A stretch of DNA of 64,000 nt, taken from Gemmatimonadota bacterium. GTDB taxonomy: Bacteria > Gemmatimonadota > Gemmatimonadetes > Gemmatimonadales > GWC2-71-9. The translations under genes were made by a program, and so were the position numbers. Shown in pieces: positions 19,436 to 62,527 of the stretch (position 1 is its first letter; every line of letters begins with the position of its first letter). Where the stretch lies: the NCBI GenBank assembly GCA_009692115.1, contig SHZU01000004.1, positions 138,275-202,274 of the forward strand, given 5' to 3'. Under the pieces are notes generated by a model. It was not told the DNA's origin. It was given only the letters and a program-made list of their open reading frames with translations, and ran no database searches.

Positions 19436-19524
19436 ATCGTTATAAATAGGCCACTTACATAGGGTTTGACAAGCGGCTAGGATAGTCTGGAGCGGTGCCA
19501 CCCCACTCATCGGAGAAATTCCGA

Positions 19525-19761
19525 ATGCACGTTTCGATCCAGTACTGCGTTCAGTGAAATTACCAACCCCGAGCCGCCAGGCTGGCGGCTGAGCTCAAGG
19601 ATGCGTTCCCCACAGTCGAGATCACGATGCTGCCCTCGTCCGGTGGCGTCTTCGAGGTGACGGTGGATCAGGTCGTGACCTTTTCGAAGAAGGCCCTCCG
19701 ACGGCACGCCGAACCGGGTGAGGTCGTCGGGCTGATCCAAAGCAAGAAACCGGCGGTTTAG
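19525..19761 (+). CDS. SelW/SelT/Rdx-family selenoprotein (CxxU), UGA-Sec at 19555-19557
   Basis: GGAG lies 9 nt upstream of ATG 19525. Translation: MHVSIQYCVQ-U-NYQPRAARLAAELKDAFPTVEITMLPSSGGVFEVTVDQVVTFSKKALRRHAEPGEVVGLIQSKKPAV. The Rdx-fold pattern is present (IxYCxxU, GGxFEV, SK). The gene is absent from the ORF track because of the TGA. Confidence 0.75.
19572..19590 (+). promoter_or_regulatory. SECIS-like hairpin downstream of the SelW-like UGA
   Basis: Perfect 7-bp stem AGCCGCC/GGCGGCT with loop AGGCT. It starts 14 nt after the TGA. Confidence 0.6.
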
Positions 19762-19770
19762 GAAGGGCCA

Positions 19771-20922
19771 ATGATGCGGGTTGCGATTTCGACCGGGGGC
19801 GGCGATGCCCCCGGACTCAATGCCGTGATTCGAGCCGTCGTGCTGTCCGCCCACCAACGCGGGTGGGAGTGCTTCGGGATCCGGCGCGGATATGACGGGC
19901 TCTTCGTTCGGGGCGGCGGCCGCTCCTTTTCCTACGGGAGCGCCTATGAGGGGCCGGATCGTCGTCGTGGCGATCCGGCGGGTGGCCTGATGCCGCTCGG
20001 TCCCGATCAGGTTCGGGGCATTACCCACCTGGGAGGCACAATTCTCGGGACTACCAATCGCGGGAACCCGTTTCATTGGCCGACCCGGATGCCCGACGGA
20101 TCGATCCAGGAGATCGATCGGTCCGGTGAACTCCTGGAGTCGTTCCAGCACTATCGACTCGATGCCTTGGTGGCCATCGGCGGCGATGGGAGTCTGACGA
20201 TCGCTCACGACCTCTGGAGAAGAGGCATTCCGGTCGTCGGCGTACCGAAGACCATCGACAATGACGTCGTCGGGACCGAGGCGACCTTCGGCTTCGACAC
20301 CGCCGTCGCGACGGCGACTGATGCGCTCGACAAGCTCCACACCACGGCGGAAAGCCACGATCGGGTGTTCGTCGTCGAACTGATGGGACGGAACGCCGGC
20401 TGGATCTCGCTACACACCGGCGTTTCCGGCAGTGCCGACGTTATCCTGATCCCGGAGATCCCATTCGACATCGAGAAGGTCTGCCAGAAGATCCGAGATC
20501 GCGAAGCCAATGGCCGCCACTTCTCGATGATCGTCGTGGCTGAGGGTGCCCGACCAAAGAATGGCAGCGTGGCTCTGCTCGAGACGGCCAAGACCGGCAT
20601 GGTGGAACGGTTAGGCGGGATTGCGGCTCAGCTCGCTGCCACCATTGCCGAGCGGACCGGCAAGGAAACCAGAAGTCTGGTGCTTGGGCACCTCCAGCGC
20701 GGCGGTTCACCTACGACCTTCGATCGCTTGCTGGCGCTTCGGTTTGGCTCGGCGGCGGTGCGGGCCATCGCCGACGGCGACTTCGGATCGGTGGTGGTCT
20801 ACACGCCACCGACCATCAGCCGGCGCCGGATCAACGAGATAATGGGCAAGCAAAAACTGGTGCCCCTCGACAGCGGCGTCATTCTAACGGCCCGGAGCCT
20901 CGGGATTTCCTTCGGAGACTAG
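19771..20922 (+). CDS. pfkA: 6-phosphofructokinase (PfkA family)
   Basis: RVAISTGGGDAPGLNAVIRAVV, GGDGSLT, PKTIDND, MGRNAGW and GHLQRGG. There is an insertion of about 40 aa after the first Rossmann segment. It starts 9 nt after the selenoprotein stop. Confidence 0.9.
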   Translation: MMRVAISTGGGDAPGLNAVIRAVVLSAHQRGWECFGIRRGYDGLFVRGGGRSFSYGSAYEGPDRRRGDPAGGLMPLGPDQVRGITHLGGTILGTTNRGNPFHWPTRMPDGSIQEIDRSGELLESFQHYRLDALVAIGGDGSLTIAHDLWRRGIPVVGVPKTIDNDVVGTEATFGFDTAVATATDALDKLHTTAESHDRVFVVELMGRNAGWISLHTGVSGSADVILIPEIPFDIEKVCQKIRDREANGRHFSMIVVAEGARPKNGSVALLETAKTGMVERLGGIAAQLAATIAERTGKETRSLVLGHLQRGGSPTTFDRLLALRFGSAAVRAIADGDFGSVVVYTPPTISRRRINEIMGKQKLVPLDSGVILTARSLGISFGD

Positions 20923-28834: not shown

Positions 28835-31402
28835 TTGCGCCCGATCCGAGATCACAATCTTCCGCCGGACCCGGCGGCGTACCGGGCGGCGCGGCCCAAG
28901 GGCCGAGTGATTGTCATTGCCCCGACCCGGGCGGCTTGTGAGACGATCGAACTTGCGCTCGGCTCAACGTTCGAGACGCTGCTGATCCGGGAGCACGGCC
29001 AAGAATTGGTGGCCTGGGCTGAGGCGCGGAAGGGCTTCGGAATCGTGGCCGGCACCGGGACCGGGAAGACCCTGTCGGTGCGGCTCTTTGCCGAGGCCAT
29101 CCTCGGGGAATCGCTCCGCTACGGAGTGGTCAATCGTGAGCGGGAGGCCACACCCGAGACGCCGTTCTGGAACGTCATCGTGGCGACGACCGGGATTGCC
29201 CGGCGGTGGTTTCAGGACGAGCTGATCACCGCCGCGGATACGCTGGTGGTCGACGAGATCCACCAGACGTCGGCGGAGCTTGAGTTGTGCCTGGCCCTCG
29301 GCAAGCGGGCCGGTTGCCGGTTCATCTGGCTCAGTGCGACGGTCGATCCGACGTTTTACGCCAGTTACCTCAAGAGCGATCACGTCCTCGAGACCTCGGC
29401 GTTCGATCCGGCATTGAAGGCCCGGGTTCACGTCATGGCGAAGGACACCACCGAATTCTTCGACGACCGGACCATCAAACGATTGATCCGGGAACGCCGT
29501 GGCGTCGCGGTCTTCGTGCCGACCCGGGCCGAAGTGGAACGGTTGGCCGCCGAGTTGGGAGCCAAGTGGCCCGGACTGACGGCGGCCTTCTATCACGGTG
29601 GCGAACCGATTCGGGTCATTCGTCCCTTCCTTGAAGGCCAGGTCGACAAGCCGTTCCTGCTTGCGATGACCGCGGCCGGGCAATCGGCGCTCAACCTGCC
29701 CGGCCTCGACACCGTGGTGATCTACGATGCCCGGTACGGCAACGTCGTCGACCGGGGGCGGAATGTGCTGCACCGGTTGTATTTGGGTGCCAACGAAATC
29801 CTCCAGATGGCGGGCCGGGTTCATGGCAGGGTGGCCAACGGCGAGGTGACCATTCTGTCCGACCGGCCCCTTCGGTTCGAGGATCTTCGCCCGACGCCGC
29901 CGGAATTCCAGCTGGCCGGCGATGCGGAGCGGGTCGCGCTGACGTGCGCCGCCATGGGAGTGGATGCCGCCGACCTCGAACTGCCGGTGCCGCTCGATCG
30001 AACCGCGTATCGAAAGTCAGTAGCGCTATTGACGGAGCGCGGCCTCATTGCCGGAGGCCGGCTCACAAAATATGGCCGCGATGTCGAGGCGATGCCGGTC
30101 GAGCGCTGCTGGGGCGAGCTGCTGGTCAGCAGCGAGCCGGACTTGGCCCCGATGCTGGCGGTCGCCTCGGCGGTCGATTCGACCCATCGGATGACCCGGG
30201 AGGAACGTGACCTCCGCGGCGTCGCCATTCAGGGGAGCGACCACCTGACGGCGTACAACATCTACGCTGAGGCGGTGAACCGGTTCGGCGTGGTGGGCGA
30301 GGTTCATGGACTCGAGCGCCACGGATTCGAGGAAGGGATCGCTGAGTGGGCGGAGGAGCGAGGGGTCTTGGTCAAGGCGATCGAGGATGCCGCGATGGGG
30401 ATGGCGTCGGTCTACCGCTCGCTCGAATTGAAATTGCCGCGGGGGCTTCCCTACGTCAGCAAGGAACTCAAGAGCCAGTTCGCCGACTTGGTGGCCCGGG
30501 TGATGCCGTTCGATTTGGTGATTGACGAACGGACGGCGGATGGCCAAGAAGCGCGGATTGGGAAGCGGTCGTTCGCGGGCAACTGGGGCGCGGTGGCCGG
30601 GTCGCTCCGGTTCTTTGCCGACCGGTTCGGGGTGCCGCGCGCGTCGGTCGAGGGGACGACGATCTCGTACGATCAGGTTCGTCAGTACGCGAAACGGGGC
30701 GAACCTGAGGTCACCGTGAGCGGCTCGCGGAAACATCAGCGACTGCTGGTGGGCCACACCTTGTCGTATTTTGGGTTTGACCTCGAGACGATCCGGGAGC
30801 CGTTGCCGGATCTGATTCCCGAGGCCCTCCGTCCCACCGCGATGAATGCGCTGATCGATGGCGTCATCGACGGCAGCATTAACCACCCCGACCAAGGCAA
30901 GATTCGGCGAGCGGCGCGGGAGCTCGAGGAGTATTGGCGTCGGTCCGGAGGCGTCCTCGCAGCGGCCAGCCCCGACGGGGTTCGTCGCGCGGTTTCCGCT
31001 CAGCTCGAAGGCGTCACCAGCTGGTCGGATTTCATGAAGCGGCGCCTGGAACTCGATCCGGCCGATCACATCGCACTGGAACAGCGGGTGGCGTTGGATC
31101 AATTGCCCGCCACCGTGCGGTTGTTTGGCGACGCGACGGCGATCGAGTACGATATCGATCGGGGGGTTGGGGTCGCCCGGCTTCGGCTTCGGGAGGGTCA
31201 GGCCCGGCGGATGACGGAGGATGATCTGCCGGTGGTGGACCGGCCGCTCCGTTTTCAGGTGCTTCGCGGAGAGGACCCGCCGATCGAGGCGGAAACGTTG
31301 GCGATGTTGAAGGGGTTGATTAATGGCTCGGCGACTCGGCGCTCGGCACTCGGCACTCGGCAGAATCAGCAGCGGCATCAGCGGTCTCGGAGGAGACGAT
31401 GA
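28835..31402 (+). CDS. DEAH/HrpA-like ATP-dependent helicase (atypical)
   Basis: Motif I AGTGTGKT, motif II VVDEIHQTS, SAT-like LSATVDP, then FVPTRAEVE and QMAGRVHGR. Long C-terminal region. The last roughly 25 codons are encoded partly by heptamer repeats. The stop overlaps the next ATG (ATGA). Confidence 0.8.
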   Translation: MRPIRDHNLPPDPAAYRAARPKGRVIVIAPTRAACETIELALGSTFETLLIREHGQELVAWAEARKGFGIVAGTGTGKTLSVRLFAEAILGESLRYGVVNREREATPETPFWNVIVATTGIARRWFQDELITAADTLVVDEIHQTSAELELCLALGKRAGCRFIWLSATVDPTFYASYLKSDHVLETSAFDPALKARVHVMAKDTTEFFDDRTIKRLIRERRGVAVFVPTRAEVERLAAELGAKWPGLTAAFYHGGEPIRVIRPFLEGQVDKPFLLAMTAAGQSALNLPGLDTVVIYDARYGNVVDRGRNVLHRLYLGANEILQMAGRVHGRVANGEVTILSDRPLRFEDLRPTPPEFQLAGDAERVALTCAAMGVDAADLELPVPLDRTAYRKSVALLTERGLIAGGRLTKYGRDVEAMPVERCWGELLVSSEPDLAPMLAVASAVDSTHRMTREERDLRGVAIQGSDHLTAYNIYAEAVNRFGVVGEVHGLERHGFEEGIAEWAEERGVLVKAIEDAAMGMASVYRSLELKLPRGLPYVSKELKSQFADLVARVMPFDLVIDERTADGQEARIGKRSFAGNWGAVAGSLRFFADRFGVPRASVEGTTISYDQVRQYAKRGEPEVTVSGSRKHQRLLVGHTLSYFGFDLETIREPLPDLIPEALRPTAMNALIDGVIDGSINHPDQGKIRRAARELEEYWRRSGGVLAAASPDGVRRAVSAQLEGVTSWSDFMKRRLELDPADHIALEQRVALDQLPATVRLFGDATAIEYDIDRGVGVARLRLREGQARRMTEDDLPVVDRPLRFQVLRGEDPPIEAETLAMLKGLINGSATRRSALGTRQNQQRHQRSRRRR
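31327..31362 (+). repeat. tandem heptanucleotide repeat, 5 units (CTCGGCG a CTCGGCG CTCGGCA CTCGGCA CTCGGCA)
   Basis: Read directly. It lies inside the 3' end of the helicase ORF, 37 nt upstream of the next gene's ATG. Confidence 0.85.
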
Positions 31403-32856
31403 ATTGGCGATTCTTGGTGGGGGTTGGATTGGTGGGGGGGTGCGGGAAGGGGGCGCCGTCGGTGGTGGATCGGACGGCGGAGGCGGTAGCGGCGGTGGCG
31501 GCGGGGCTTCGGCCGCCGATGGCGATTCAAGGGGCGCCGGAGGTGGTGTACCGGTTGGCGGACCGGATGTCGCACTATCACGTGCCGGGGGTGTCGGTGG
31601 CGGTGGTGGACAGCGGGCGGATGGTGTGGGCGACGGGGTTTGGGGTGAAGGAGGCGGGAACGGCGGATTCGGTGTCTGCTGAGACGATCTTTCAGGCGGC
31701 GTCGATCAGCAAGCCGGTGGCGGCGACGGCGATGTTGCGACTGGTCGAGGCCGGGAAGTTATCGCTCGATACGGCGGTCAATGTCTATCTCACCAGTTGG
31801 CAACTTCCAAGCAACCAGTTTACGGCGAAGCAGGCGGTCACACTCCGGCGGGTCGTGTCGCACAGTGCTGGACTGACGATCTCGGGGTTTCCCGGGTACA
31901 AGGCCGGCGATTCGGTGCCGACGGTGCCCCAGGTCCTCGATGGGACGAAGCCGGCCAATACCGGCCCGGTCCGGGTTGACGTGGAGCCGGGGAAGATCAT
32001 GCGGTACGCGGGCGGGGGCACGACGATCATGCAGTTGGTGCTCACCGATGTCACGGGCGAATCCTTTCCCGCGTTGATGAAGCGGTTGGTGATCGATCCG
32101 ATCGGGATGACGAGCAGTACCTACGAGCAACCGCTGCCCGAATCACGCTGGGCCGAGTCGGCCGCGGCGCATGAGGCCGACGGGATCATGACGCCGGGGC
32201 GGGCCCATACCTATCCGGAAATGGCGGCGGCCGGACTCTGGACGACGCCGACTGACTTGCTCAAGTGGGCGATGGAGATTGCGGCCGCCAGGGCAGGAAC
32301 ATCTACCAAGGTGCTCTCGACGGCGACCGCGATTGAGATGCTCACGGTCCAGAAGGCTCCCGCTGGGTTGGGTCCGTTCCTGGATGGTGCCGGCCGCGGC
32401 TTCAACTTCGGCCATACCGGGGGGAATCATGGGTTTCGGTGCGAGGTGATCTACTTCCCGGAAACCGGACAGGGTGCGGCCGTGATGACCAACGGCGAGC
32501 AAGGGATCGCGCTGGTGAAGGAAATTCTCTATTCGATTGCGGCTCATTATCGATGGCCTGAGTACGGACCGCGGTCGGTGTCCCTGGTGGCCTTGGATTC
32601 GGTTCAGCTGGAGCGGTACGTCGGAACCTATGAGGCCGCCAAGCCCTTTCCGGTCTTGCTGGTGGTCAGCCGGGAGGGCGGGAAGCTCTTTGCGGAAGCG
32701 AAGGGGCTTCTTCCGCGCGAAGAGTTCGGTCTTACGACCGCGGAGAAGTCGATTGGGTTCCAATCGGGCAGTGAGGGAACCTTCCTGATGGGGCCGAGAG
32801 GTAAGGTCCTCGGAGTCGAATTTTCGGGAAATAAACTGATGCGGAAGGCCAAATAG
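31399..32856 (+). CDS. beta-lactamase-family serine hydrolase (class C/PBP-like), lipoprotein
   Basis: Lipobox LVGGCG. SxxK motif in FQAASISKPVAATAML. YSN-type and HTGG regions (FGHTGGNHGF). Confidence 0.85.
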   Translation: MNWRFLVGVGLVGGCGKGAPSVVDRTAEAVAAVAAGLRPPMAIQGAPEVVYRLADRMSHYHVPGVSVAVVDSGRMVWATGFGVKEAGTADSVSAETIFQAASISKPVAATAMLRLVEAGKLSLDTAVNVYLTSWQLPSNQFTAKQAVTLRRVVSHSAGLTISGFPGYKAGDSVPTVPQVLDGTKPANTGPVRVDVEPGKIMRYAGGGTTIMQLVLTDVTGESFPALMKRLVIDPIGMTSSTYEQPLPESRWAESAAAHEADGIMTPGRAHTYPEMAAAGLWTTPTDLLKWAMEIAAARAGTSTKVLSTATAIEMLTVQKAPAGLGPFLDGAGRGFNFGHTGGNHGFRCEVIYFPETGQGAAVMTNGEQGIALVKEILYSIAAHYRWPEYGPRSVSLVALDSVQLERYVGTYEAAKPFPVLLVVSREGGKLFAEAKGLLPREEFGLTTAEKSIGFQSGSEGTFLMGPRGKVLGVEFSGNKLMRKAK

Positions 32857-32859
32857 CCA

Positions 32860-34890
32860 ATGCGGACGACAGCGTCGATACTGGGGTTGGTGGTTGGTGC
32901 GGCAACACTCTCGGCCCAGGTGCCGGGGCCGAGTTTTCGGGACGTCATCAACCTGCAGAGCCTCGGCTCGCCGGCGATTTCGCCGGACGGGAAGGCGGTG
33001 GCCTATACGATCCGGACGACTGATTGGAAGGACAACCGGTTCGACACGGAGATCTGGTTGTGGCGTCAGGGGGCCGGCTCAATTCAACTGACCCGGTCGC
33101 CCAAGGGCAGCAGTACCGCGCCACGATGGTCACCGGATGGAAAGTGGCTCGGTTTCTTGGCCGACCGGGGCGACCGGCAGCAGTTGTATGTGATCGGGGC
33201 CATGGGCGGAGAGGCGATTCGGCTCACCGGCCTCAAGGATGGCGTGGCCGACTATCGGTGGTCGCCGGTGGGTGGGAAGATCGCCTTGGCGGCCACCGAG
33301 CCCGAGACCGAAGCCGCGACCAAAGCGAAGGCGCTGTACGGCGACTTCTTCATGGAAGAGAATGACTACCGGATGACCCATCTTTGGGTCATGGACGCCG
33401 ATCCGACCCGGTGGCTCGGCGACTCGACCGGGCTGCCGAAGCCGACCCGGCTGACCGAGGGCGGCGCCTACACGGTGGGTTCGTTCGGGTGGTCGCCGGA
33501 TGGAAGCCGGATTGCGTTCGATCACCGACGCGATCCGCTGCTGCACTCGGGGTCAACGACTGATATCTCGATCGTGACGGTGACCAATCGGGCCGTGACG
33601 CCGTTGGTGGTTCGAATTGGATCGGACGGGTCGCCGGTGTGGTCGCCCGACGGGCAATGGGTTGCCTTCACCACGTCCGCAGGCGATACCGTCTCCAATT
33701 TCTACAAGAACAGCCAGCTCATGAAAGTGGCGGCGGGAGGCGGAGTGCCGACGCGGTTGGCGGCCGACTTCGACGAGATGATCGGCTCGCTGTTGTGGAC
33801 GCCGGACGGGATTTGGTTCACGGCCTTCAACAAGACGACGTCGGGCTTCGTCCAAGTCGATCCGGTCACCGGCCGAGCGGAGCGCGATACGGGGTCGCCG
33901 TTCGTGGCGATCGGTGGGGCCGATGTGACGCGGGACGGCAAGTGGTGGGTGATCTCGGCGCAGAAGGACGGGATGTCGTTGCCGGAGTTGTACCGGGGCG
34001 AAGTGACCGGGCCGGGCGGGCCGGAAAAGCTGACCGACATGACGGCCCAGATTGCCTCGTGGAACGTCGGGCAAAACGAAGTGGTGAGCTGGCCGAGTCG
34101 GGACGGCACGATCATCGAAGGCGTACTCCACAAGCCGAAGGACTGGCAGCCGGGGAAGAAGTACCCGTTGTTCGTGGTGATTCACGGCGGGCCGACCGGG
34201 ATCGACGTTCCCCAGCCGGCGCCGTTCTACGTCTATCCGATTCCCCAGTGGGTGGCCAAGGGCGCCCTGGTACTCCGGCCGAACTACCGAGGCTCGGCTG
34301 GCTATGGCGAGAAGTTCCGGTCGCTCAACGTCCGGAACCTCGGCGTCGGCGATATGTGGGACGTGATGTCGGGTGTTGACCATCTGATCAAGAATGGCAT
34401 GGTCGACAGCACCAAGATGGCGGCCATGGGTTGGAGCCAGGGCGGGTACATCTCCGCGTTTCTGACGACCAATACCTCGCGGTTCAAGGCCATTTCGGTG
34501 GGGGCCGGAATTTCGAATTGGGTGACGTACTACGTCTCGACCGACATCTATCCGTTCACGCGCCAGTACCTCAAGGCCACGCCGTGGGACGACATGGCGA
34601 TTTACCTCAAGACCTCACCGATGACGGCGATCAAGCAGGCCCGGACGCCGACCTTGATTCAGCACGGGCAGTTCGACTGGCGGGTGCCGATCCAGAATGC
34701 CTACGAATTGAACCAGGGGTTACTCGATCAGGGGGTCCCGAGCGAGCTGATGGTCTACCGCGGCTTTGGGCACGGGATCAACAAACCGAAGGAGCAGCTC
34801 GCAGCGGTGTGGCATAACTGGCGGTGGTTTGGGAAGTACATCTTCGGCGAGCAAGTGACGATTCCGCTGGACGAACCCCCGACGCCGTGA
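32860..34890 (+). CDS. S9-family serine peptidase (beta-propeller plus alpha/beta hydrolase)
   Basis: Signal peptide. Propeller repeats (SPDGK.VA, WSPDG). Catalytic GWSQGGYIS, then D...GHG at the C-terminus. It starts 3 nt after the upstream stop. Confidence 0.9.
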   Translation: MRTTASILGLVVGAATLSAQVPGPSFRDVINLQSLGSPAISPDGKAVAYTIRTTDWKDNRFDTEIWLWRQGAGSIQLTRSPKGSSTAPRWSPDGKWLGFLADRGDRQQLYVIGAMGGEAIRLTGLKDGVADYRWSPVGGKIALAATEPETEAATKAKALYGDFFMEENDYRMTHLWVMDADPTRWLGDSTGLPKPTRLTEGGAYTVGSFGWSPDGSRIAFDHRRDPLLHSGSTTDISIVTVTNRAVTPLVVRIGSDGSPVWSPDGQWVAFTTSAGDTVSNFYKNSQLMKVAAGGGVPTRLAADFDEMIGSLLWTPDGIWFTAFNKTTSGFVQVDPVTGRAERDTGSPFVAIGGADVTRDGKWWVISAQKDGMSLPELYRGEVTGPGGPEKLTDMTAQIASWNVGQNEVVSWPSRDGTIIEGVLHKPKDWQPGKKYPLFVVIHGGPTGIDVPQPAPFYVYPIPQWVAKGALVLRPNYRGSAGYGEKFRSLNVRNLGVGDMWDVMSGVDHLIKNGMVDSTKMAAMGWSQGGYISAFLTTNTSRFKAISVGAGISNWVTYYVSTDIYPFTRQYLKATPWDDMAIYLKTSPMTAIKQARTPTLIQHGQFDWRVPIQNAYELNQGLLDQGVPSELMVYRGFGHGINKPKEQLAAVWHNWRWFGKYIFGEQVTIPLDEPPTP

Positions 34891-43083: not shown

Positions 43084-44709
43084 ATGAAGGTTGTGGTGCT
43101 TGGATCGCTGCTGGCGTTGGTGGCCGTGCCCGTTATGGAGGCCCAGCGCCCGGAGGCGCTGGATTCGGTTTTTTCGGCGTACGATCGGACCGATGGACCC
43201 GGCTGCGCCGTGGCCGTGAGTCGCGATGGGAAGGTGCTGGCCGCCCGCGGTTTTGGAATGTCCGACCTGGCTCAAAACCTCGCGATCACGCCGCACTCGG
43301 TGTTTCATGTGGCGTCGGTCTCGAAGCAGTTCACCGGGATGAGCTTGGTGCTGCTGGCCAAGAGCGGCGCCGTCTCGCTGGATGACGACATCCGGAAGTA
43401 TCTCCCCGAGCTTCCGTCATACAGCCAAGTGGTGACCATCCGTCACCTCCTGACCCACACCGGCGGGATCCGCGACCAGTGGAGTCTGTTGATGACGGCC
43501 GGTTGGCGGCTCGGTGATGACCTGATTACCGAGCAAGACGTGCTCGAGATCGTGGTCCGGCAGCGCTCGCTGAACTTCGCACCGGGGACCGATTGGCTCT
43601 ACAGTAATTCTGGATTCTCGTTGGCCGCTATCATCGTCAAACGGGTCACCGGTAAGACCCTTCGGGAATACGCCGAGGAGCAGATGTTCCGGCCGCTCCA
43701 GATGAGTCAGACCCATTTCCACGATGACAACGGCATGGTGGTCCTAGGCCGAACCCGGGGGTACGGATATCAGGGGGCCTGGAAGGAAACCGTCCCGAAC
43801 TACTCCACGGTCGGGGCGACCAGTCTGTTCACCACGGTGATCGACTTGGTGCAGTGGCACCGGCATCTCGACGAAGGCCTGTTAGGCGGACCGGAATCCC
43901 TCCGGACTTTGCTCACCCCGGCGGTCCTGACCTCGGGTGATTCGCTCAAATACGCCCTCGGGATTCAGCATGGCAGCTACCGGGGGGTGCCGACGATTTC
44001 CCATTCCGGAGGCGATCCGGGCTACCGGACGCATTTACTCCACTTCCCGCGCTTCAAGGGCGGGGTGTCGGTGTTGTGTAACCAGAATGAAGCCAACCCA
44101 GTGCTGTTGGGCGAGCAAACGGCCGATCGGTTCTTCGCGAGCGAGTTGCAACCGGTCCGGATCCCGGGTGATTCGGCAGCCGGGGGGGCGTTGGTCGAGG
44201 CGACCGGGCTCTACTGGAGCGAACAGACCGAGGGCATTGCCACGGTTGAAATCGAGGGCACTCGCTTGGGTTGGAAAACCGGGCCGGTCAGTACCAGGCT
44301 CCGACGACTGACTGAGGATTCCTATTCGATCGGCAACGGGCCGGGGCGGCTCCAGGTGGTGCCGAACGGCGTGGTGGCCCGGACCGGGAACGGGGAGCCG
44401 TCGCGCTATGCTCGCGTCGATGCCTGGGTTCCGAGCGCGGCGGACCGAGCGGCCCTAGCCGGCCGCTATACCAGCGATGAGATCGGGGTCACCTGGCAGA
44501 TTCGGCTCGCCGGCGATACCCTGTCGCTCGAGCGGCGAAAGTTCTCTGCCGCTCCGTTGACCGCGGTGTTTCGAGATACGTATACCGCCAGTTCCGGCGG
44601 CCTCCAACTGGTGATCCGAGCGGTTCGTGACAAAGCAGGAAAAGTGACCGGAGTGACCGTGGGATCCGGACGGGTTCGGCGGGTAGCGTTTTCCAAGGAG
44701 AAGGCATGA
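43084..44709 (+). CDS. beta-lactamase-family serine hydrolase with C-terminal extension domain
   Basis: Signal peptide. SxxK in FHVASVSKQFTGMSLVLL, then YSNSGF and SHSGGDPGY. Its stop overlaps the next ATG (ATGA). Confidence 0.85.
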   Translation: MKVVVLGSLLALVAVPVMEAQRPEALDSVFSAYDRTDGPGCAVAVSRDGKVLAARGFGMSDLAQNLAITPHSVFHVASVSKQFTGMSLVLLAKSGAVSLDDDIRKYLPELPSYSQVVTIRHLLTHTGGIRDQWSLLMTAGWRLGDDLITEQDVLEIVVRQRSLNFAPGTDWLYSNSGFSLAAIIVKRVTGKTLREYAEEQMFRPLQMSQTHFHDDNGMVVLGRTRGYGYQGAWKETVPNYSTVGATSLFTTVIDLVQWHRHLDEGLLGGPESLRTLLTPAVLTSGDSLKYALGIQHGSYRGVPTISHSGGDPGYRTHLLHFPRFKGGVSVLCNQNEANPVLLGEQTADRFFASELQPVRIPGDSAAGGALVEATGLYWSEQTEGIATVEIEGTRLGWKTGPVSTRLRRLTEDSYSIGNGPGRLQVVPNGVVARTGNGEPSRYARVDAWVPSAADRAALAGRYTSDEIGVTWQIRLAGDTLSLERRKFSAAPLTAVFRDTYTASSGGLQLVIRAVRDKAGKVTGVTVGSGRVRRVAFSKEKA

Positions 44710-46748
44710 GACGGATTGCAGCGGCAGTTCTATTTTTCGTTCTGGCGACCTCGGCCGAGGCCCAGAAGGCCCAACTCGGCCCGATGGACATCTTCAACCT
44801 CGAGTACGCGACGAGTCCGGAGATTTCCCCGGACGGCCAGTGGGTCGTGTATGTCCGCCAGTATTTCGATGTCATGACCGACCGGCGGTACTCGAATCTC
44901 TGGATTGCCCGGAGTGACGGGTCCGATCATCGGCCGCTGACGGCGGGCAAGTACACCGAGGGCGAGCCGGTGTGGTCGCCGGACGGGAAGCGGCTGGCCT
45001 ACATCTCGAGTCGCGAGGGTTCTCCGCAGATTTACGTCCGCTGGATGGACAACGGACAAACCTCTCCGATCACCAAGGTGCAGGAGCCGCCGTCCGGGAT
45101 TGCCTGGTCACCGGATGGGGCGATGATTTCGTTCTTCAAGTTGGTGCCGAGCCCGGCCCTGGTGGTGGGCCAGCAGCCGCCTCCGCCGCCCGGAGCGCAA
45201 TGGGCCCCGCCAGCCAAGTACACCAACCGGCTGGTGTTCCGGTTCGACGGCGTCGGCGAGGTGCCGCCCGGGTTCTCGCACCTGTTCGTGGTGCCGTCCG
45301 AAGGTGGCACCGCCCGCCAGTTGACCAGCGGCGATTTTCATCATGGGACGAGTGGCTTCGGAGGTGGCACGGCGTCATGGGCTCCGGACGGTCAGGCGAT
45401 CGTATTCCAGGCGAGTCGCCGGGCCGACGCCGAGCGGCATTTGTTGGAGACTGATCTCTATGAGGTCACCGTGGCCGACGGGCGGCTTCGGCAGTTGACC
45501 GACCGGATGGGGCCGGATGGCTCGGCGGTGGTCTCGCCCGACGGGAAGTTGGTGGCGTATCTCGGATTCGACGACCGAAAAGTCGGCTACCAGAACACTT
45601 TGCTCCATTTGATGAATCGGGACGGCAGTGGGAAACGGGTCCTCTCGACCAAACTCGATCAGAGCGTTGGGGCGGCGGTTTGGTCGGCAGACGGCAAGAG
45701 TCTCGTCGTGGGCTACGACGAAAAGGGCAACAGCAAGGTGGCCGTCATGCTGCTCGACGGGAGCTACCGAGTGGTGGCCAACAATCTTGGGACCGGTGGC
45801 AGCGCGTACGGCGGTGGCTCGTACTCAGTGGCCAGGGACGGTAGCGTGGCGTTTACCACCAGTACTCCGTCGGTGCCGGGCGACATTGCCGTCGTCAGGC
45901 CGACTCAGCCGGTGCGGACGATCACGTCGGTCAATGCCGATGTCATGGCCGACCGGCGGCTTGGGCAGGTTGAGGAGCTCTGGTGGAAGTCGTCCAAGGA
46001 TGGCCGGCCGATTCAGGGGTGGATCATCAAGCCCCCGGATTTCGATCCGGCCAAGAAGTACCCGATGATCCTGGAGATTCACGGCGGTCCGTTCGCGAAC
46101 TACGGCGACCGATTCGACGTTGAAAAGCAGCTGATGGCGGCCGGCGGCTACGTGGTGTTGTACACCAACCCACGGGGCAGCACGAGCTATGGCGAAGAGT
46201 TCGGTAACCTGATTCACCATGCCTATCCGGGCGATGATTTCTTCGATCTCGACTCCGGGGTCGACGCGGTGATTGCCAAGGGATACGTCGACGACAAGAA
46301 CCTGTTCGTAACCGGCGGGAGCGGTGGCGGGGTGCTGACGGCCTGGATGATCGGGCGGACCAACCGGTTCCGGGCGGCGTTGGCGTTCTATCCGGTGATC
46401 AACTGGTACTCGTTTGCCTTGACGGCCGATATGTCGCCGCTGGCCGTCGACAATTGGTTTCCGGGTCTGCCGTGGGACAATCTTCAGAATTATGAGTCGC
46501 GCTCATTGCTGTCAGTGGTCAAGAACGTGAAGACGCCGACCCTGATCATGACGGGGGAAGAGGACTATCGGACCCCGATGTCGGAGTCGGAGCAGTACTA
46601 CAAGGCCCTCAAGCTGCTCGGGGTCGAGACGGTGTTGGTTCGGGTTCCGGGTGAATCGCACGGCATTTGGGGACGGCCCAGCCACGGGATGGCGAAGCTG
46701 ACGACGATGCAGGGCTGGTTCGACCAGCACCGGTCGCAAGTGCCGTAG
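44706..46748 (+). CDS. S9-family serine peptidase (acylaminoacyl-peptidase-like)
   Basis: Signal peptide. Propeller repeats (SPDGQWV, WSPDGKRLAY). Catalytic VTGGSGGGVLTAW, then EEDYRTP and ESHG. Confidence 0.9.
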   Translation: MRRIAAAVLFFVLATSAEAQKAQLGPMDIFNLEYATSPEISPDGQWVVYVRQYFDVMTDRRYSNLWIARSDGSDHRPLTAGKYTEGEPVWSPDGKRLAYISSREGSPQIYVRWMDNGQTSPITKVQEPPSGIAWSPDGAMISFFKLVPSPALVVGQQPPPPPGAQWAPPAKYTNRLVFRFDGVGEVPPGFSHLFVVPSEGGTARQLTSGDFHHGTSGFGGGTASWAPDGQAIVFQASRRADAERHLLETDLYEVTVADGRLRQLTDRMGPDGSAVVSPDGKLVAYLGFDDRKVGYQNTLLHLMNRDGSGKRVLSTKLDQSVGAAVWSADGKSLVVGYDEKGNSKVAVMLLDGSYRVVANNLGTGGSAYGGGSYSVARDGSVAFTTSTPSVPGDIAVVRPTQPVRTITSVNADVMADRRLGQVEELWWKSSKDGRPIQGWIIKPPDFDPAKKYPMILEIHGGPFANYGDRFDVEKQLMAAGGYVVLYTNPRGSTSYGEEFGNLIHHAYPGDDFFDLDSGVDAVIAKGYVDDKNLFVTGGSGGGVLTAWMIGRTNRFRAALAFYPVINWYSFALTADMSPLAVDNWFPGLPWDNLQNYESRSLLSVVKNVKTPTLIMTGEEDYRTPMSESEQYYKALKLLGVETVLVRVPGESHGIWGRPSHGMAKLTTMQGWFDQHRSQVP

Positions 46749-46750
46749 GC

Positions 46751-47892
46751 CTACTGGAACTCGAGGTCCCGGGCAAAGTCGGCGGGGCTGGTGGCGGCGG
46801 AGAGTGCCACGGCCTCGGAGATGGTTCCGTTCCGGTAGAGTTCCATCAGGTGTTGGTCGAAGGTCTGCATGCCGTATTGGGTTCGGCCGCTGGCGATCAG
46901 GTCTTTGATTTCGTTGGTCCGATCGGCGTCCGCGATGTACTCCTGGACCGCGCCGGTGTGGTGCATGATTTCGACGGCGGCCACCCGACCTTTGCCGTCC
47001 TTGTGGGGCAGCAGCCGCTGGGACACCACGGCCCGGAGGGTTTCGCTCAGCCGGTAACGAATTGACTGCTGTTCGGCCGGCTCGAACACACTCACGAGCC
47101 GCGAAATGGTCTTGATGGCGTCGGTCGTGTGGGCCGTGCTGAACACCAAGTGGCCGGTTTCGGCCGCTTTCATTGCGATATCGATGGTCTCCTGATCGCG
47201 CATTTCGCCGAGCATGATGATGTCGGGGTCTTGGCGGAGGGCCGCGCAGAGGGCGCTCGAGAAACTCTCGGTGTCCCCGCCGAGCTCGCGTTGAATGACC
47301 ACCGACTTGTGGTCTTTGGGGAGGAACTCGATCGGGTCTTCGATCGTGACGATCTTCGCGGAGCGCTACTGATTGAGGAACGATACCATCGCCGCGAGGG
47401 TCGATGATTTGCCGCTCCCGGTCACCCCGATAACCAGCATCAGTCCCCGGTCTTCCATCGCAATGTCGCGGACCACGGCCGGGAGGCCGAGTTGCTCGAA
47501 GTCAGGAACCGTGACTGGAATGGCTCGAAGCACCAGGGCGATCGGTCCCCGCTGGCTACACAGGTTGACCCGGAACCGTCCCAATCCGGGCTGAGAGTAC
47601 GAACAGTCGATATCCCGAAGGCCCGCGAGGGTGGCGGCCAGGGTGGCCGGGGTGGCTTTTTCGCGGCCGTGAGGATTTCTGCCGCGATTTCGGCCGTATG
47701 TTCGGGCTTGAGGTTCGGCATCCCCGCCACCGAGGCCATTTGACCACGGATCCGGAGCCTAAACGGACCTCCCGCTGAGGCATGGACGTCGGAAGCGTTG
47801 AGCTCGGTGGCGCGTTTGAGCACCGCGAAGAACGTGGCGATAATCGGTGGGCGGGTGGTCGCCGGGGCGGTCGGTTCGAGGGTGGTCGTCAT
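46751..47892 (-). pseudogene. pilT: type IV pilus retraction ATPase PilT/PilU, disrupted by one frameshift and one in-frame TAG
   Basis: The N-terminal frame reads MTTTLEP...ELNASDVHASAGGPFRLRIRG...AEILTAAKK. A shift at an A5 run (T5 on +, 47657-47661) leads to ...ATPATLAATLAGLRDIDCSYSQPGLGRFRVNL...GVTGSGKSSTLAAMVSFLNQ. An in-frame TAG follows (47368-47366), then RSAKIVTIEDPIEFLPKDHKSVVIQRELGGDTESF...DPDIIMLGEMRD...VFSTAHT. Confidence 0.8.
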
Positions 47893-47937
47893 GTCAGAGT
47901 CTTCCAAGGCAGGAACCGTGCCTTGGCGGGGCTCGGC

Positions 47938-58016: not shown

Positions 58017-59660
58017 CTAACGATTGAACCGAATTCGGAGCATCCGGCTGGCGCTGACCTCGAAGCCGTTGATCCGGCCGTCGGCGCCCCGGGTAAAGCG
58101 AACGAAGCTCCCATCGGCCTGATAGGCGTCTTTGATCCGGGGTTTCAGCTCGGATTCTCCGACGGCTCGGCCCTTGAGCATGGCCTTGCCCTTCTCGATC
58201 CGCACGGTCCAGATGGTTCCGAGCTCGGGGCTCGAATACGACCCGACCAAAGCTTGGAGGTCAGCGCCGGTCGAAGTATAGCCCGCGGTCTTGAGATAAG
58301 GACCTTGACTGGTGCCGAGGATCGAGAGGCTGAGGGCGCGGCGTTGGTCGCTGAACTGGAGTTCGACGGCCTGTCCCTGGTAGCTGAATCGATCCTCGCC
58401 GAGGGGGGTGAGCGGTAAAGGCCGACCCATGGCATGGGCTACGAGGCGGCCGGAGTCGGCGGTGATCTCGACGACCGACTGGAGCAGGTCGGCGTAGTAG
58501 AGCCCGAGATACGGGGCGGGGTCAATCTTGACTACCGGAGCGGCCGCTGGGGCACTGGGAGAGCCGGCGGCAGGAGCGGCGGGGAAGACGCCGGCCAGAA
58601 TCACATCGGCGACGTCGGTGGCCCGTTTCTGGGTGTTGGCCGTCCCGATGTTGCACGTCACCCCGATCGATACGCCCTGGTCTGGGAATCGCATCAACAT
58701 GGCGCGGTAGCCGGCCCACGCGCCCCCATGGTGGATCCGCCGGAGGCCCCGGTATTTGTCGACGAACAGACCCCGGGCATAACTCAGACTATCACCATTG
58801 TTCAGGGTGCCCCGCTGTTCCATTCGATCGATCAGCGCCTGACCGCCCACTTTGGGATCAGAGAAGTTGGCATCCCACCGGGCCAGGTCGAGGACGGTGG
58901 TATTCACCGCGCCATCGCCGGTCTGATCCCAATTCGACATATCGACCGTAAAGCCGCCGTTCGGTCCCGGACCGTAGGCCGTGGCGCGGTTTGGAAGGAT
59001 GGCGGTGTGGTCGTCCCGGAAGTGGGTCACGGCCATGCCCAACGGCGAGAAAATCCGCTCCTTGGAGAACTCGGTCAGCGTCCGGTTGGTGACCCTCTTC
59101 ACGATCGTCGAGAGCAGGAAGAATCCGGTATTGCTGTAGTCCCACCGGCTCCCCGGTTCGAAGTTCAACGCTCGTTGGGAAATGATGACGCCGAGCGCGT
59201 CGTCGTCGTTGGTGAAGTCTTCGAAGAAGTGTCCTGCCATGAACAACAGCCCGTTGTAATCTCGGAGCCCGCTGGTATGACGGAGCAGGTGATCGATGGT
59301 GATCGTCTTGCCATAGCCTGGGAGCTCGGGGACATACTTCCGGACGTCGTCGGCCAGGGACAGCTTGCCTTCGTTGGCGAGGATCACGATGGCGGCGGCG
59401 GCGAATTGTTTCGACGTCGACCCGATGTCGAACACCGTGGTCGGGCTGATCGGCACGCCGAGATTCAAGTCGGCCATGCCGTACCCCCTGGCAAACCGGA
59501 CCCGGCCCCGTTCGTAGACGCCGAGGGCGCAGCCCGGCGTGGTCGTGCCATACTCCTTGAAGACCGCATCGACTTTGGCCGTGTCGAGTTGGATCGGGGT
59601 CTGGGCGGCCAAGGCAAAGGGGAGGCTGAGCAGGACGGTAGTGGCGGTCACGATCTTCAT
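58017..59660 (-). CDS. beta-lactamase-family serine hydrolase with C-terminal extension domain
   Basis: ATG 59660 gives signal MKIVTATTVLLSLPFALAAQ. SxxK in FDIGSTSKQFAAAAIVIL, then YSNTGF and HHGGAWAGY. Clear paralogue of 43084-44709. Confidence 0.85.
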   Translation of the reverse strand: MKIVTATTVLLSLPFALAAQTPIQLDTAKVDAVFKEYGTTTPGCALGVYERGRVRFARGYGMADLNLGVPISPTTVFDIGSTSKQFAAAAIVILANEGKLSLADDVRKYVPELPGYGKTITIDHLLRHTSGLRDYNGLLFMAGHFFEDFTNDDDALGVIISQRALNFEPGSRWDYSNTGFFLLSTIVKRVTNRTLTEFSKERIFSPLGMAVTHFRDDHTAILPNRATAYGPGPNGGFTVDMSNWDQTGDGAVNTTVLDLARWDANFSDPKVGGQALIDRMEQRGTLNNGDSLSYARGLFVDKYRGLRRIHHGGAWAGYRAMLMRFPDQGVSIGVTCNIGTANTQKRATDVADVILAGVFPAAPAAGSPSAPAAAPVVKIDPAPYLGLYYADLLQSVVEITADSGRLVAHAMGRPLPLTPLGEDRFSYQGQAVELQFSDQRRALSLSILGTSQGPYLKTAGYTSTGADLQALVGSYSSPELGTIWTVRIEKGKAMLKGRAVGESELKPRIKDAYQADGSFVRFTRGADGRINGFEVSASRMLRIRFNR

Positions 59661-59906
59661 GGGCGACTCAGGATAGTGGTGACATTGGGATCGGCAGGGA
59701 GCCAATTCAATTGCGGATGAAGTCGCATGGTGACTGTAATGTGACGGGTTTCGCGCGGGTACGCGAGTAGGGGGAGTCGCGCCGCCATCGTGTCACGCTC
59801 GCAGTGCGAGCCAATTACTCGAATCGGGGTCACGATGGTCGACAGGTGACACACTGTCTGACGAAGTAGGCAGCCAAGGCAATGATACCAATGACCAAGT
59901 AGTGCG

Positions 59907-60484
59907 ATGGATGTGATTCGTTAGGTGACCGGCGCGACTTCCTGCGGCAAGCGGCGGGATGGGCGGCCGCGGTTGCAGCCGCCCTGGCGATTCCAGGACG
60001 GGCGGCGGTGGCGCTCCCGATCGGGGTGGCCATCGGCCGGCGGAATGAGGGGGGCGGTGGGGTCAACTACGCCCTCCCGCCCGCCGACGGGATCCTGATC
60101 GACAAGCCCAACGAGGTCATCGTGGCCCGGCATCAAGGGTCGGTGTACGCCTTCGCCCTGTCGTGTCCCCATCAGAACACGGTCCTCAGATGGTTGGCCG
60201 ACGAAGGCCGGTTTCAGTGTCCGAAACACAAGTCGCGCTATCAACCTGACGGCACCTTCATTTCCGGGCGGGCCACCCGAAACATGGACCGCCTGCTGAT
60301 CCGGCGCGACGGGGCCACGGTCGTCGTCGACGTGGATCACGTCTTCGAAAGCGACAAAGACCCGGCGGCCTGGTCGGCGGCTGTCGTCAAGGTTCAGGAC
60401 TCGGCACTCGGCACCGGTTGGGAGTGGCGGGTTGGGGCGCGGTGGGCTAACCTGAGGGCCTCACGACCATCCGGCGAGGTCTCG
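59907..60484 (+). pseudogene. Tat-exported Rieske [2Fe-2S] protein gene lacking an in-frame start and a stop (reads through into the S9 gene)
   Basis: The frame carries a twin-arginine signal (GDRRDFLRQAAGWAAAVAAALA) and the Rieske motifs CPHQN...CPKHKS. The only upstream ATG (59907, MDVIR then TAG) is in the +1 frame. The first in-frame start (GTG 60008) is after the Tat motif. There is no stop before the S9 ATG at 60485. Confidence 0.5.
60400..60417 (+). repeat. tandem heptanucleotide repeat, 2 units plus a partial (CTCGGCA CTCGGCA CCGG)
   Basis: Read directly. It lies between the Rieske domain and the S9 peptidase start. Confidence 0.7.
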
Positions 60485-62527
60485 ATGCGTGGCTTTTCCC
60501 TCCTGTTCGTCACTTTGTTCCCTTGGTCCGTGGCGGCGCAGGTCCGGCCGGCGGATACCCTGTTCCAGGTTGAGCGATACCTCGATTACGAGACGGTGCA
60601 GTCGCCTCGGATCTCGCCGGACGGCAACGTCGTGGTGTTTGGGCGGCGAGCGGTTGACAAGATGAAAGACAGCTGGGAAACCAGCTTGTGGATCATGAAC
60701 GCCGATGGGTCGAACCTTCGGTTCCTCCTCAAAGGTGCCGACCCGGTGTGGTCGGCTGATGGAACCCGGATCGCGTTTCTTGCCCCGGGCGAGCCGGGCG
60801 GGAATCAGATCTTCGTCCGCTACATGGATGCCGAAGGGGCGGTGTCGCAGGTAACGCGAGTGGAGCAGACGCCGTCCGATATCCGCTGGGCGCCGGACGG
60901 GCGCTCGATCGGCTTTGCGATGGTGGTACCCTCGGCGCCCGACTGGAACGTCCGGCTTCCAGCCCCGCCGGCCGGTGCGACCTGGACGCGGGCTCCGCGG
61001 GTGGTCGACAAACTCCATTCGCGGGCCGATGGGCGCGGGTGGCTGGTCAACGGGTACACCCATCTCTTCGTGGTGCCTTCCACTGGCGGGACGCCCCGCC
61101 AGGTCACGACCGGAACTTGGAATGTGGGTGCTCGGGGTATTGGACTGCCCGGGTCGGTGGGCTGGGACTGGATGCCCGACGGCCGGAGTCTCGTGGTCGA
61201 TGGCAACGACGATCCCGATGCCGACCGGCAGCGCCAGGTCTCCAACATCTACGCGGTTGATCTCGAGACCCTCACGCGTCGCCGGCTCACCCCGTCGAAA
61301 GGCAATTGGACCAATCCCATTGTCTCGCCCGACGGCAAGGTGATTGCCTTCCTCGGTTTCTCGTTTACCAAGCAGACCTATCGGGTGTCTGATCTGTACA
61401 CGATGCCCGCCACCGGCGGCGCGGCCACGCTTCGAAGTCAGGGCTTTGACCGAACGCCCTCGCAGTTGGTATGGGCGCTGGACAACAGCGGGCTCTATTT
61501 CGTCGCCGACGATCGGGGGGTCTCGAATCTCTACCTCGCGCCGACCAGCGGTCCGATCCGGCCGCTGACCACCGGGATTCATATGTTGACCGCGCCCTCG
61601 GTCTCGAAGAAAGGCACGGCGGTGGTGGTTCGGACCCATTTCTACGCCCCACCTGACGTCGTGAAGATCGATCTCAAGAAGCCGTCGCAGTTGGTTCCAC
61701 TGACCCAGATGAATGCCGATCTCCTTGGCGGAGCCAAGCTCGGCGAGGTCGAAGAGATCTGGTACCGGTCGGCGGACGGAACCCGGGTCCAGGGGTGGAT
61801 CGTCAAGCCGCCGTCCTTCACCCCGGACCGAAAGTGGCCGTTGATCCTCGAGATTCACGGCGGCCCTCACGGGATGTACAACGTCGGGTTCAATCCGATG
61901 TACCAGAACTTCGCCGCCAACGGGTTCGTCACGTTGTACACCAACCCCCGAGGCAGCACCGGCTACGGCACCGACTTCGGCAATGCGATCGACCAGGCGT
62001 ACCCGAGTGTCGACTACGACGATCTCATGGCCGGCGTCGACAGTGTCATCGGCCGGGGCTATGTGGACGAAAAGCAGATGTACGTGACGGGGTGCAGCGG
62101 TGGCGGGGTGTTGTCGAGTTGGGTCATTGCCCATACCAACCGGTTCGCGGCCGCGGCCGTCCGCTGCCCGGTTACCAACTGGATGAGTTTTGCCGGCACC
62201 AGCGACATCCCGCTTTTCGGCTTCAACTGGTTCGACAAGCCCTATTGGGAAGACCCCAAGCCGTGGCTCGAGCACAGTACGATCTTCCACGTCGGCAAAG
62301 TCAAAACCCCGACCTTGCTGATGACCGGCGAGCTCGACCTTCGGACCCCGATGGGCCAGACGGAGGAATACTTCGCCGCCTTGAAAGTGTTAGGCGTACC
62401 GACGGCGATGGTGCGGTTCGAGGGCGAGTACCACGGGACCGGTTCCAAACCCTCGAACTGGATGCGGACTCAAGTGTACATGATGGAGTGGTTCCGCCGG
62501 TACGGCACCAACGGAACCATTCCGTGA
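60485..62527 (+). CDS. S9-family serine peptidase (beta-propeller plus alpha/beta hydrolase)
   Basis: ATG 60485 gives signal MRGFSLLFVTLFPWSVAAQ. Propeller repeats (SPDGNVV, WSADGTRIAF, WAPDGRS). Catalytic VTGCSGGGVLSSW, then GELDLRTP and EYHG. The track ORF (from 60008) is the in-frame fusion with the Rieske frame. Confidence 0.9.
   Translation: MRGFSLLFVTLFPWSVAAQVRPADTLFQVERYLDYETVQSPRISPDGNVVVFGRRAVDKMKDSWETSLWIMNADGSNLRFLLKGADPVWSADGTRIAFLAPGEPGGNQIFVRYMDAEGAVSQVTRVEQTPSDIRWAPDGRSIGFAMVVPSAPDWNVRLPAPPAGATWTRAPRVVDKLHSRADGRGWLVNGYTHLFVVPSTGGTPRQVTTGTWNVGARGIGLPGSVGWDWMPDGRSLVVDGNDDPDADRQRQVSNIYAVDLETLTRRRLTPSKGNWTNPIVSPDGKVIAFLGFSFTKQTYRVSDLYTMPATGGAATLRSQGFDRTPSQLVWALDNSGLYFVADDRGVSNLYLAPTSGPIRPLTTGIHMLTAPSVSKKGTAVVVRTHFYAPPDVVKIDLKKPSQLVPLTQMNADLLGGAKLGEVEEIWYRSADGTRVQGWIVKPPSFTPDRKWPLILEIHGGPHGMYNVGFNPMYQNFAANGFVTLYTNPRGSTGYGTDFGNAIDQAYPSVDYDDLMAGVDSVIGRGYVDEKQMYVTGCSGGGVLSSWVIAHTNRFAAAAVRCPVTNWMSFAGTSDIPLFGFNWFDKPYWEDPKPWLEHSTIFHVGKVKTPTLLMTGELDLRTPMGQTEEYFAALKVLGVPTAMVRFEGEYHGTGSKPSNWMRTQVYMMEWFRRYGTNGTIP

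Follow-up and report, generated by a model that had tools for sequence, protein, structure and literature searches.

The stretch of 64,000 nucleotides analyzed here (the window) carries at positions 19525-19761 of the plus strand what is very probably a real gene for a SelW-like protein of the Rdx family, in which an in-frame UGA would be read as selenocysteine (Sec) by means of a hairpin located shortly downstream, giving the redox motif Cys8-x-x-Sec11. At the level of sequence comparison the family membership of the product, the conservation of the UGA codon, the coding constraint upstream of it, the pairing of Sec and Cys forms, and the conservation and covariation of the hairpin have been established. 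Descriptions of bacterial SelW-like CxxU proteins date back to 2005, and dedicated NCBIfam models exist for them; bacterial members have reportedly been treated by Zhang and Gladyshev in 2005 (Sargasso Sea), by Zhang et al. in 2006 and in the GOS survey of 2008. Among bacterial selenoproteins they are regarded as an established family with abundant members (PMC2398784, PMC1794560).

The gene at 19525-19761, its product and its public records

The predicted gene starts with ATG at 19525, ends with TAG at 19759-19761 and comprises 78 codons before the terminator, codon 11 being TGA (19555-19557). A GGAG sequence resembling a Shine-Dalgarno motif, read from the sequence at 19512-19515 on the same strand, precedes the ATG by 9 nt, and purine-rich GGAG/GAGG motifs occur at similar spacing 5′ of the aligned start in most homologous loci. 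The read-through product, MHVSIQYCVQ-U-NYQPRAARLAAELKDAFPTVEITMLPSSGGVFEVTVDQVVTFSKKALRRHAEPGEVVGLIQSKKPAV, is 78 residues long and its CxxU redox motif is encoded by nucleotides 19546-19557 (Cys8, TGC at 19546-19548, followed by Val, Gln and the putative Sec11). The ATG (19771) of a 6-phosphofructokinase (PFK) gene, extending on the plus strand from 19771 to 20922 and scoring 358.7 bits with NCBIfam NF002872 (cutoff 253), is found 9 nt past the stop codon. The start, the GGAG, the TGA, the 78-residue translation and the distance to PFK had all been given in an earlier note on this DNA, and each was present at the claimed coordinates, the translation being identical. An in-frame GTG at 19495 was rejected as the start codon because the homologues align at ATG 19525 and the spacing of GGAG, 9 nt before it, favors the latter. 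A scan for sigma-70 promoters found no site upstream of the gene. When the whole window was scanned for genes with an in-frame TGA, 19525-19761 was the sole credible case; seven other candidates turned out to be an ordinary stop followed by the next ORF, or antisense artefacts.

It had also been anticipated that gene callers would truncate the gene, and this is what public records contain. The only entry for this region in the mechanical ORF list is a 44-aa truncated ORF at 19627-19761 (plus strand), the form reported by gene callers. Bar one residue it is the same as database protein P0010, which gene callers predicted in six near-identical contigs; these stem from metagenome assemblies at ENA, Logan and NCBI, MAG GCA_945877565.1 included, and in 6/6 of them the 44-aa fragment is followed by PFK. 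Most relatives in the protein database are entries of 53-67 aa that start just past the UGA, and many of these truncated proteins are named 'selenoprotein W-related' or 'SelT/SelW/SelH family protein', the latter being the NCBI name of the 53-aa truncated fragment P0061. The family is recognized in the databases, yet its member genes are truncated. Truncation or mistranslation at the UGA recurs across the public records checked. Correcting the annotation would restore the active site, which is lacking from the fragments of 44-67 aa found as public copies, or undo the mistranslation to W present in a JGI record; since the public copies checked are truncated or mistranslated, the records systematically understate the selenoproteome of the Gemmatimonadota, a phylum common in soil.

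For scoring against profile HMMs Cys was written at the UGA position, and a variant with X was scored as well. The read-through product reached 74.3 bits with Pfam Rdx PF10262 (cutoff 22.6), its residues 2-72 aligning to positions 1-73 of the 74 in the profile, 62.5 bits with NCBIfam TIGR02174 (CXXU_selWTH, cutoff 34.2) and 97.9 bits with NCBIfam NF041051, the 'SelT/SelW/SelH family (seleno)protein' model SelTWH_Campy (cutoff 88). All three alignments begin at residue 2-3, 5′ of the TGA, and span it. The membership in the Rdx/SelW family claimed in the earlier note, together with the search against PF10262 and TIGR02174 that it had proposed, is thereby borne out above the curated cutoffs. With X in place of C at codon 11 the scores dropped by 7-8 bits and still passed (90.2 for NF041051), and the segment 3′ of the TGA taken alone gave 48.9 bits with the Pfam profile, below the full-length score. 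Homology therefore crosses the TGA, and the profiles expect Cys or Sec exactly at codon 11.

Known structures point to the same residue. The window protein matched Rdx proteins of the PDB with a best E value of 3.6e-10, and the CxxC of 3DEX, 2FA8, 2OJL and 2OKA (YCTQC) was aligned to YCVQU of the window with the second Cys on the UGA, as expected from the earlier proposal that Cys-containing homologues should place Cys there. AlphaFold was used to model the fold of P0002, a Cys-form orthologue encoded directly upstream of PFK that shares 67% identity with the window protein. The model (pLDDT 82) shows the order strand-helix-strand-strand-strand-helix with the CxxC at residues 9-12, between strand E3-9 and helix H15-28. 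It superimposed on structures of bacterial SelW-related proteins with TM 0.8-0.94 and rmsd of about 1.1 Å, on mouse SelW with TM 0.75 and on thioredoxins with TM of about 0.6. For this Cys-form orthologue the prediction is thus a thioredoxin-like Rdx fold in which strand 1 and helix 1 flank the motif.

Conservation of the UGA codon and of the downstream hairpin

A scan of GTDB species genomes gave 29 homologous loci (27 from Gemmatimonadota, one from Methylomirabilota and one from Anaerolineae) and a scan of metagenomes gave 22 further ones; the window and the 29 genome loci form the aligned genome set of 30 sequences. TGA stands at codon 11 in 29/29 genome loci and 22/22 metagenome loci, that is in 51/51 scan-derived loci, and also in locus L037 and in the six near-identical assemblies mentioned above. 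The full-length Rdx frame is kept in 51 other loci and the 96-nt alignments contain zero gaps.

The substitutions are of the coding type on both sides of the codon. For codons 2-10, single-site codon differences between the sequences were synonymous and nonsynonymous in the ratio 975:497 in frame versus 364:1059 and 221:1070 in the shifted frames; downstream of the UGA the ratio was 2080:1265 and was likewise reversed when the frame was shifted. Upstream entropy amounted to 1.15 bits at third codon positions versus 0.59 and 0.56 bits at first and second positions. All 30 aligned genome sequences have Cys8, encoded by either TGC or TGT. These comparisons show an in-frame UGA conserved among the orthologues with coding constraint both upstream and downstream. 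A general reassignment of TGA (code-4 or code-25 type) was excluded because TGA ends 21 of the 40 confident ORFs in the window, and the family profiles stop at those TGAs; elsewhere in the window it is a normal stop.

Three full-length database proteins with another residue at this position (P0001, P0002 and P0006) were checked at the DNA level. The locus of P0002 (L039) has TGC at the codon aligned to the UGA and the gene is located directly upstream of PFK, so that the window gene and P0002 constitute a Sec/Cys pair. P0006 (L037 526-736; JGI 3300005332) has W in the protein record and TGA in the DNA, because the source record translated UGA as Trp. P0001 (L038 698-922; GCA_033612675.1, JAWMQY010417899.1) has CGA (Arg) at the Sec codon, one base away from TGA, and ACC for AAC at the next codon, with the SECIS-like hairpin intact and PFK following on a contig of 1 kb; either this copy is recently mutated or inactivated, or the CGA is a sequencing error.

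In the L039 contig (positions 1-818; ENA ERZ27257243, k141_1222465) PFK is preceded by two tandem Rdx genes, the first a Sec form with the CGMU motif (EYCGM-U-GY), a TGA and a hairpin of its own, and the second, encoding P0002, a Cys form (CTAC) whose hairpin contains one C·A mismatch. A single locus seems here to have captured a duplication with conversion of Sec to Cys or of Cys to Sec.

The predicted bacterial SECIS (bSECIS) hairpin of the window occupies 19572-19590 on the plus strand, with the 5′ arm at 19572-19578, the loop AGGCU at 19579-19583 and the 3′ arm at 19584-19590. The 7-bp stem AGCCGCC/GGCGGCT, which begins 14 nt past the UGA and carries a 5-nt loop containing G, was found just as the earlier note had described it; ViennaRNA adds an A-U pair to make 8 bp. 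In the published bSECIS consensus an apical loop of 3-9 nt is placed on a stem of 4-16 bp, G occurs in the first two loop positions, mostly as N1-G-[G/U]-N-N2 in which N1 pairs with N2, the distance from UGA to loop is 16-37 nt, and the minimum free energy is -7.5 kcal/mol or lower (PMC13188914). The window hairpin has -13.6 kcal/mol, 21 nt between UGA and loop, and a loop, A-G-G-C-U, whose A and U can pair. The loop pattern is fitted by 30/30 aligned genome sequences, and 29 of the 30, the window among them, fall within every limit of the consensus, which upholds the SECIS-like character suggested earlier; the metagenome loci L040-L060 fit the model too. As a single sequence the hairpin is unexceptional: at 64.5% GC, z for the 56-nt fold is -1.24 and equally good folds were obtained from 24 of 200 shuffles, and the case is therefore based on homology and on comparison between loci.

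Among 48 distinct sequences 92.9% of the stem cells are paired, compared with 14-60% after shifting the 3′ arm by 1-3 columns. Double-sided changes were counted in 27 cells versus 9.7 ± 2.2 in shuffled alignments, and 0/500 shuffles reached 27, a control that overstates the significance because the sequences are related. The pair of columns 48:66 is represented by A-U in 28 sequences, G-C in 12 and C-G in one, and each column is a third codon position at which the changes are synonymous (Arg CGA/CGG/CGC, Ala GCU/GCC/GCG); the correlation therefore cannot stem from constraint on the protein. The pair 52:62 is G-C in 24 sequences and A-U in 9, with an A·C mismatch in fourteen (about a third), and the pair 53:61 is C-G in 42 and U-A in 5. 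In loci L024, L035, L049 and L050 pairing is held by paired Ala-to-Ile and Ala-to-Met replacements (GCCAUC...GAUGGC), where the RNA structure is maintained at the expense of the amino-acid sequence. The loop G is retained even where the overlapping codon stands for Arg, Gly or Ser among the loci. No Rfam SECIS family matched the window at the gathering threshold, nor the interval 19480-19780 when hits up to E = 10 were allowed, an outcome to be expected since bacterial SECIS elements are known to be heterogeneous. The hairpin would accordingly be described by the generic bSECIS model only, and by no Rfam SECIS family.

Pairing with phosphofructokinase and other features of the window

PFK directly follows the Rdx gene in 28/29 genome loci, with a gap of -7 to +40 nt and frequent overlap of stop and start codons, and according to tblastn it follows in 21/25 further loci, or in 22/25 when L040, with the PFK start in its remaining 51 nt, is counted. 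The pair was thus seen in about 50 of 54 loci (window 19525-20922; L007-L034 and L037-L059). Its distribution extends across Gemmatimonadales and to a Methylomirabilota MAG (L013); it is also seen with the Cys-form orthologue (L039), and is missing only from the most divergent relatives (L035, L057, L060 and L061). No published mention of a pairing between SelW-like and PFK genes was found. Since the Rdx gene of the window is co-oriented with PFK and lies 9 nt upstream of it, the two genes probably form an operon and are co-transcribed.

The pair might be a functional module, in which the selenoprotein would keep PFK reduced or regulate it (with Cys238 as the candidate target), or in which Sec decoding would tie PFK expression to selenium or redox state by translational coupling; we consider such a module rather unlikely. 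The aligned PFKs have a single well-conserved Cys (Cys238, 92%; Cys34 is conserved in 69%), hence no obvious regulatory dithiol, and functional coupling is speculative. If true, it would provide the first concrete partner for the bacterial SelW-like family, which is functionally enigmatic, and the conserved link with PFK is the only lead obtained here toward a new insight into the function of these proteins.

The PFK of the window contains an insertion of about 23 residues, VRGGGRSFSYGSAYEGPDRRRGD, encoded at 19906-19974 (residues about 46-68); it is shared with close relatives, e.g. L009, and absent from the other Gemmatimonadales PFKs aligned.

Several other features of the window are worth recording. 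A gene for a PilT/PilU-type ATPase on the minus strand (46751-47907) is split over three reading frames, 47440-47907 encoding the N-terminal piece, 47366-47584 the Walker-A piece and 46751-47302 the C-terminal half; in view of the two frameshifts it is either a pseudogene or affected by indel errors of the assembly. Three copies of a gene pair encoding a class-C beta-lactamase-like/D-aminopeptidase-like protein and a Dpp5-like S9 peptidase with a TolB-type propeller are located at 31399-34890, 43084-46748 and 58017-62527; the genes of the third copy diverge, and its peptidase carries a Rieske-like segment at the N terminus. An ORF of 723 aa at 3254-5425 matches pyruvate dehydrogenase E1 alpha over residues 24-363 and E1 beta over residues 388-720, and is predicted to be a fused E1 alpha-beta gene.

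Reading of the UGA codon and comparison with known systems

By analogy with established bacterial Sec decoding, the insertion of Sec would depend on SelB and the motif would carry out redox chemistry. SelD would supply selenophosphate and SelA would convert Ser-tRNA(Sec) to Sec-tRNA(Sec), after which SelB-GTP with Sec-tRNA(Sec) would bind the apical loop of the 19572-19590 hairpin as the ribosome nears and deliver Sec at UGA 19555-19557, 21 nt 5′ of the loop, so that the stop is avoided. The product may be a CxxU selenol/thiol oxidoreductase of the Rdx fold, with the motif at the junction of strand 1 and helix 1 cycling between selenol/thiol and selenenylsulfide.

The search for the decoding machinery covered the neighborhood of the gene. 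ARAGORN found no tRNA-Sec, and no tRNA of any kind, in the window or in the 61 fetched loci; selA, selB and selD were not found among the 40 window ORFs by the NCBIfam scan, the genes tabulated for the 10 kb preceding the window included no sel genes, and SelA, SelB and SelD were not detected by tblastn over 467 kb with approximate E. coli protein sequences as queries. This absence says little either way because only the surroundings of one gene, and little of any one genome, were covered. The Sec machinery is presumed, since a conserved UGA with a co-evolving SECIS element and constrained flanks, in Rdx proteins of identity down to about 60%, needs a recoding system. The gene would then imply that this lineage of Gemmatimonadales decodes Sec; no published statement of Sec decoding in Gemmatimonadota was found in the searchable literature.

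What the comparative data prove is recoding, not which residue is inserted, and there is a small chance that UGA 19555 is read through as an amino acid other than Sec, either Cys, by means of a tRNA(Sec)-like tRNA and SelB, or Trp, by near-cognate reading. The existence of Cys-form orthologues and the fact that Sec machinery was unseen in any readable sequence (467 kb) speak for such read-through. Recoding of UGA to Cys through SelB is rare, however. The spacing, the stem, the loop and the conserved G of the hairpin match the SelB-dependent bSECIS model, and the site is that of the redox Cys/Sec of the SelW-like family, which was more widespread in the GOS survey than any other selenoprotein family (427 Sec versus 56 Cys forms; PMC2398784). 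As to Trp, its presence at the catalytic CxxC/U site would inactivate a protein that is under strong purifying selection.

It is very improbable that the UGA is a true stop, and the locus a decaying pseudogene or a leader ORF of PFK, yielding a 10-residue peptide or a fragment initiated at Met35 (19627). The gene-caller output corresponds to this reading and the hairpin is insignificant when a single sequence is folded, but about 50 divergent loci have retained the TGA together with the peptide before it and the protein after it, with substitutions of the coding type, and the covariation of the hairpin includes compensations that change amino acids. Met35, moreover, is unconserved, being Leu in most homologues, and the fragment, devoid of strand 1 and CxxU, would have no active site. 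We give practically no credence to the view that TGC or TGT of an ordinary CxxC Rdx gene was turned into TGA by faulty sequencing or assembly: one base separates TGA from these codons and the PilT gene elsewhere in the window has two apparent frameshifts, but TGA was read in six independent near-identical assemblies and in all 51 scan-derived loci.

Read as a predicted Sec-containing SelW-like protein, the window product shares with the bacterial selenoproteins of this family the N-terminal CxxU, the length of about 70-80 aa, the SECIS element within the coding sequence past the UGA and the predominance of Sec over Cys forms, few Cys homologues having been reported (PMC1794560). It differs in its host, Gemmatimonadota, with one relative in Methylomirabilota and one in Anaerolineae; no published description of a selenoproteome was found for Gemmatimonadota. 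The Cys-form Rdx proteins of known structure, 2FA8 (Atu0228), 3DEX (SAV_2001), 2OBK, 2OKA, 2OJL and 2P0G, are homologous to it and their YC-x-x-C aligns with YC-x-x-U, whereas they are about 100 aa long, have Cys instead of Sec and contain a two-residue insertion before strand 2. With mammalian selenoprotein W (2NPB) and SelT/SelH/MIEN1 it would share, according to the model, the thioredoxin-like Rdx fold and the location of CxxU at strand 1/helix 1. The eukaryotic SECIS is placed in the 3′ UTR and served by SBP2 and eEFSec, in contrast to the element of the window, which lies within the coding sequence and agrees with the SelB-type model of bacteria. Like the E. coli fdhF-type SECIS and the bSECISearch consensus, this element is a stem-loop directly 3′ of the UGA that agrees with the consensus in every respect, while there is no resemblance in primary sequence to the SECIS elements of E. 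coli; about a third of the Rdx homologues have an A·C stem mismatch in place of the bulged U of the fdhF SECIS. The family has long been known and the gene described here adds a member to it, the only mildly new point being its place directly upstream of PFK.
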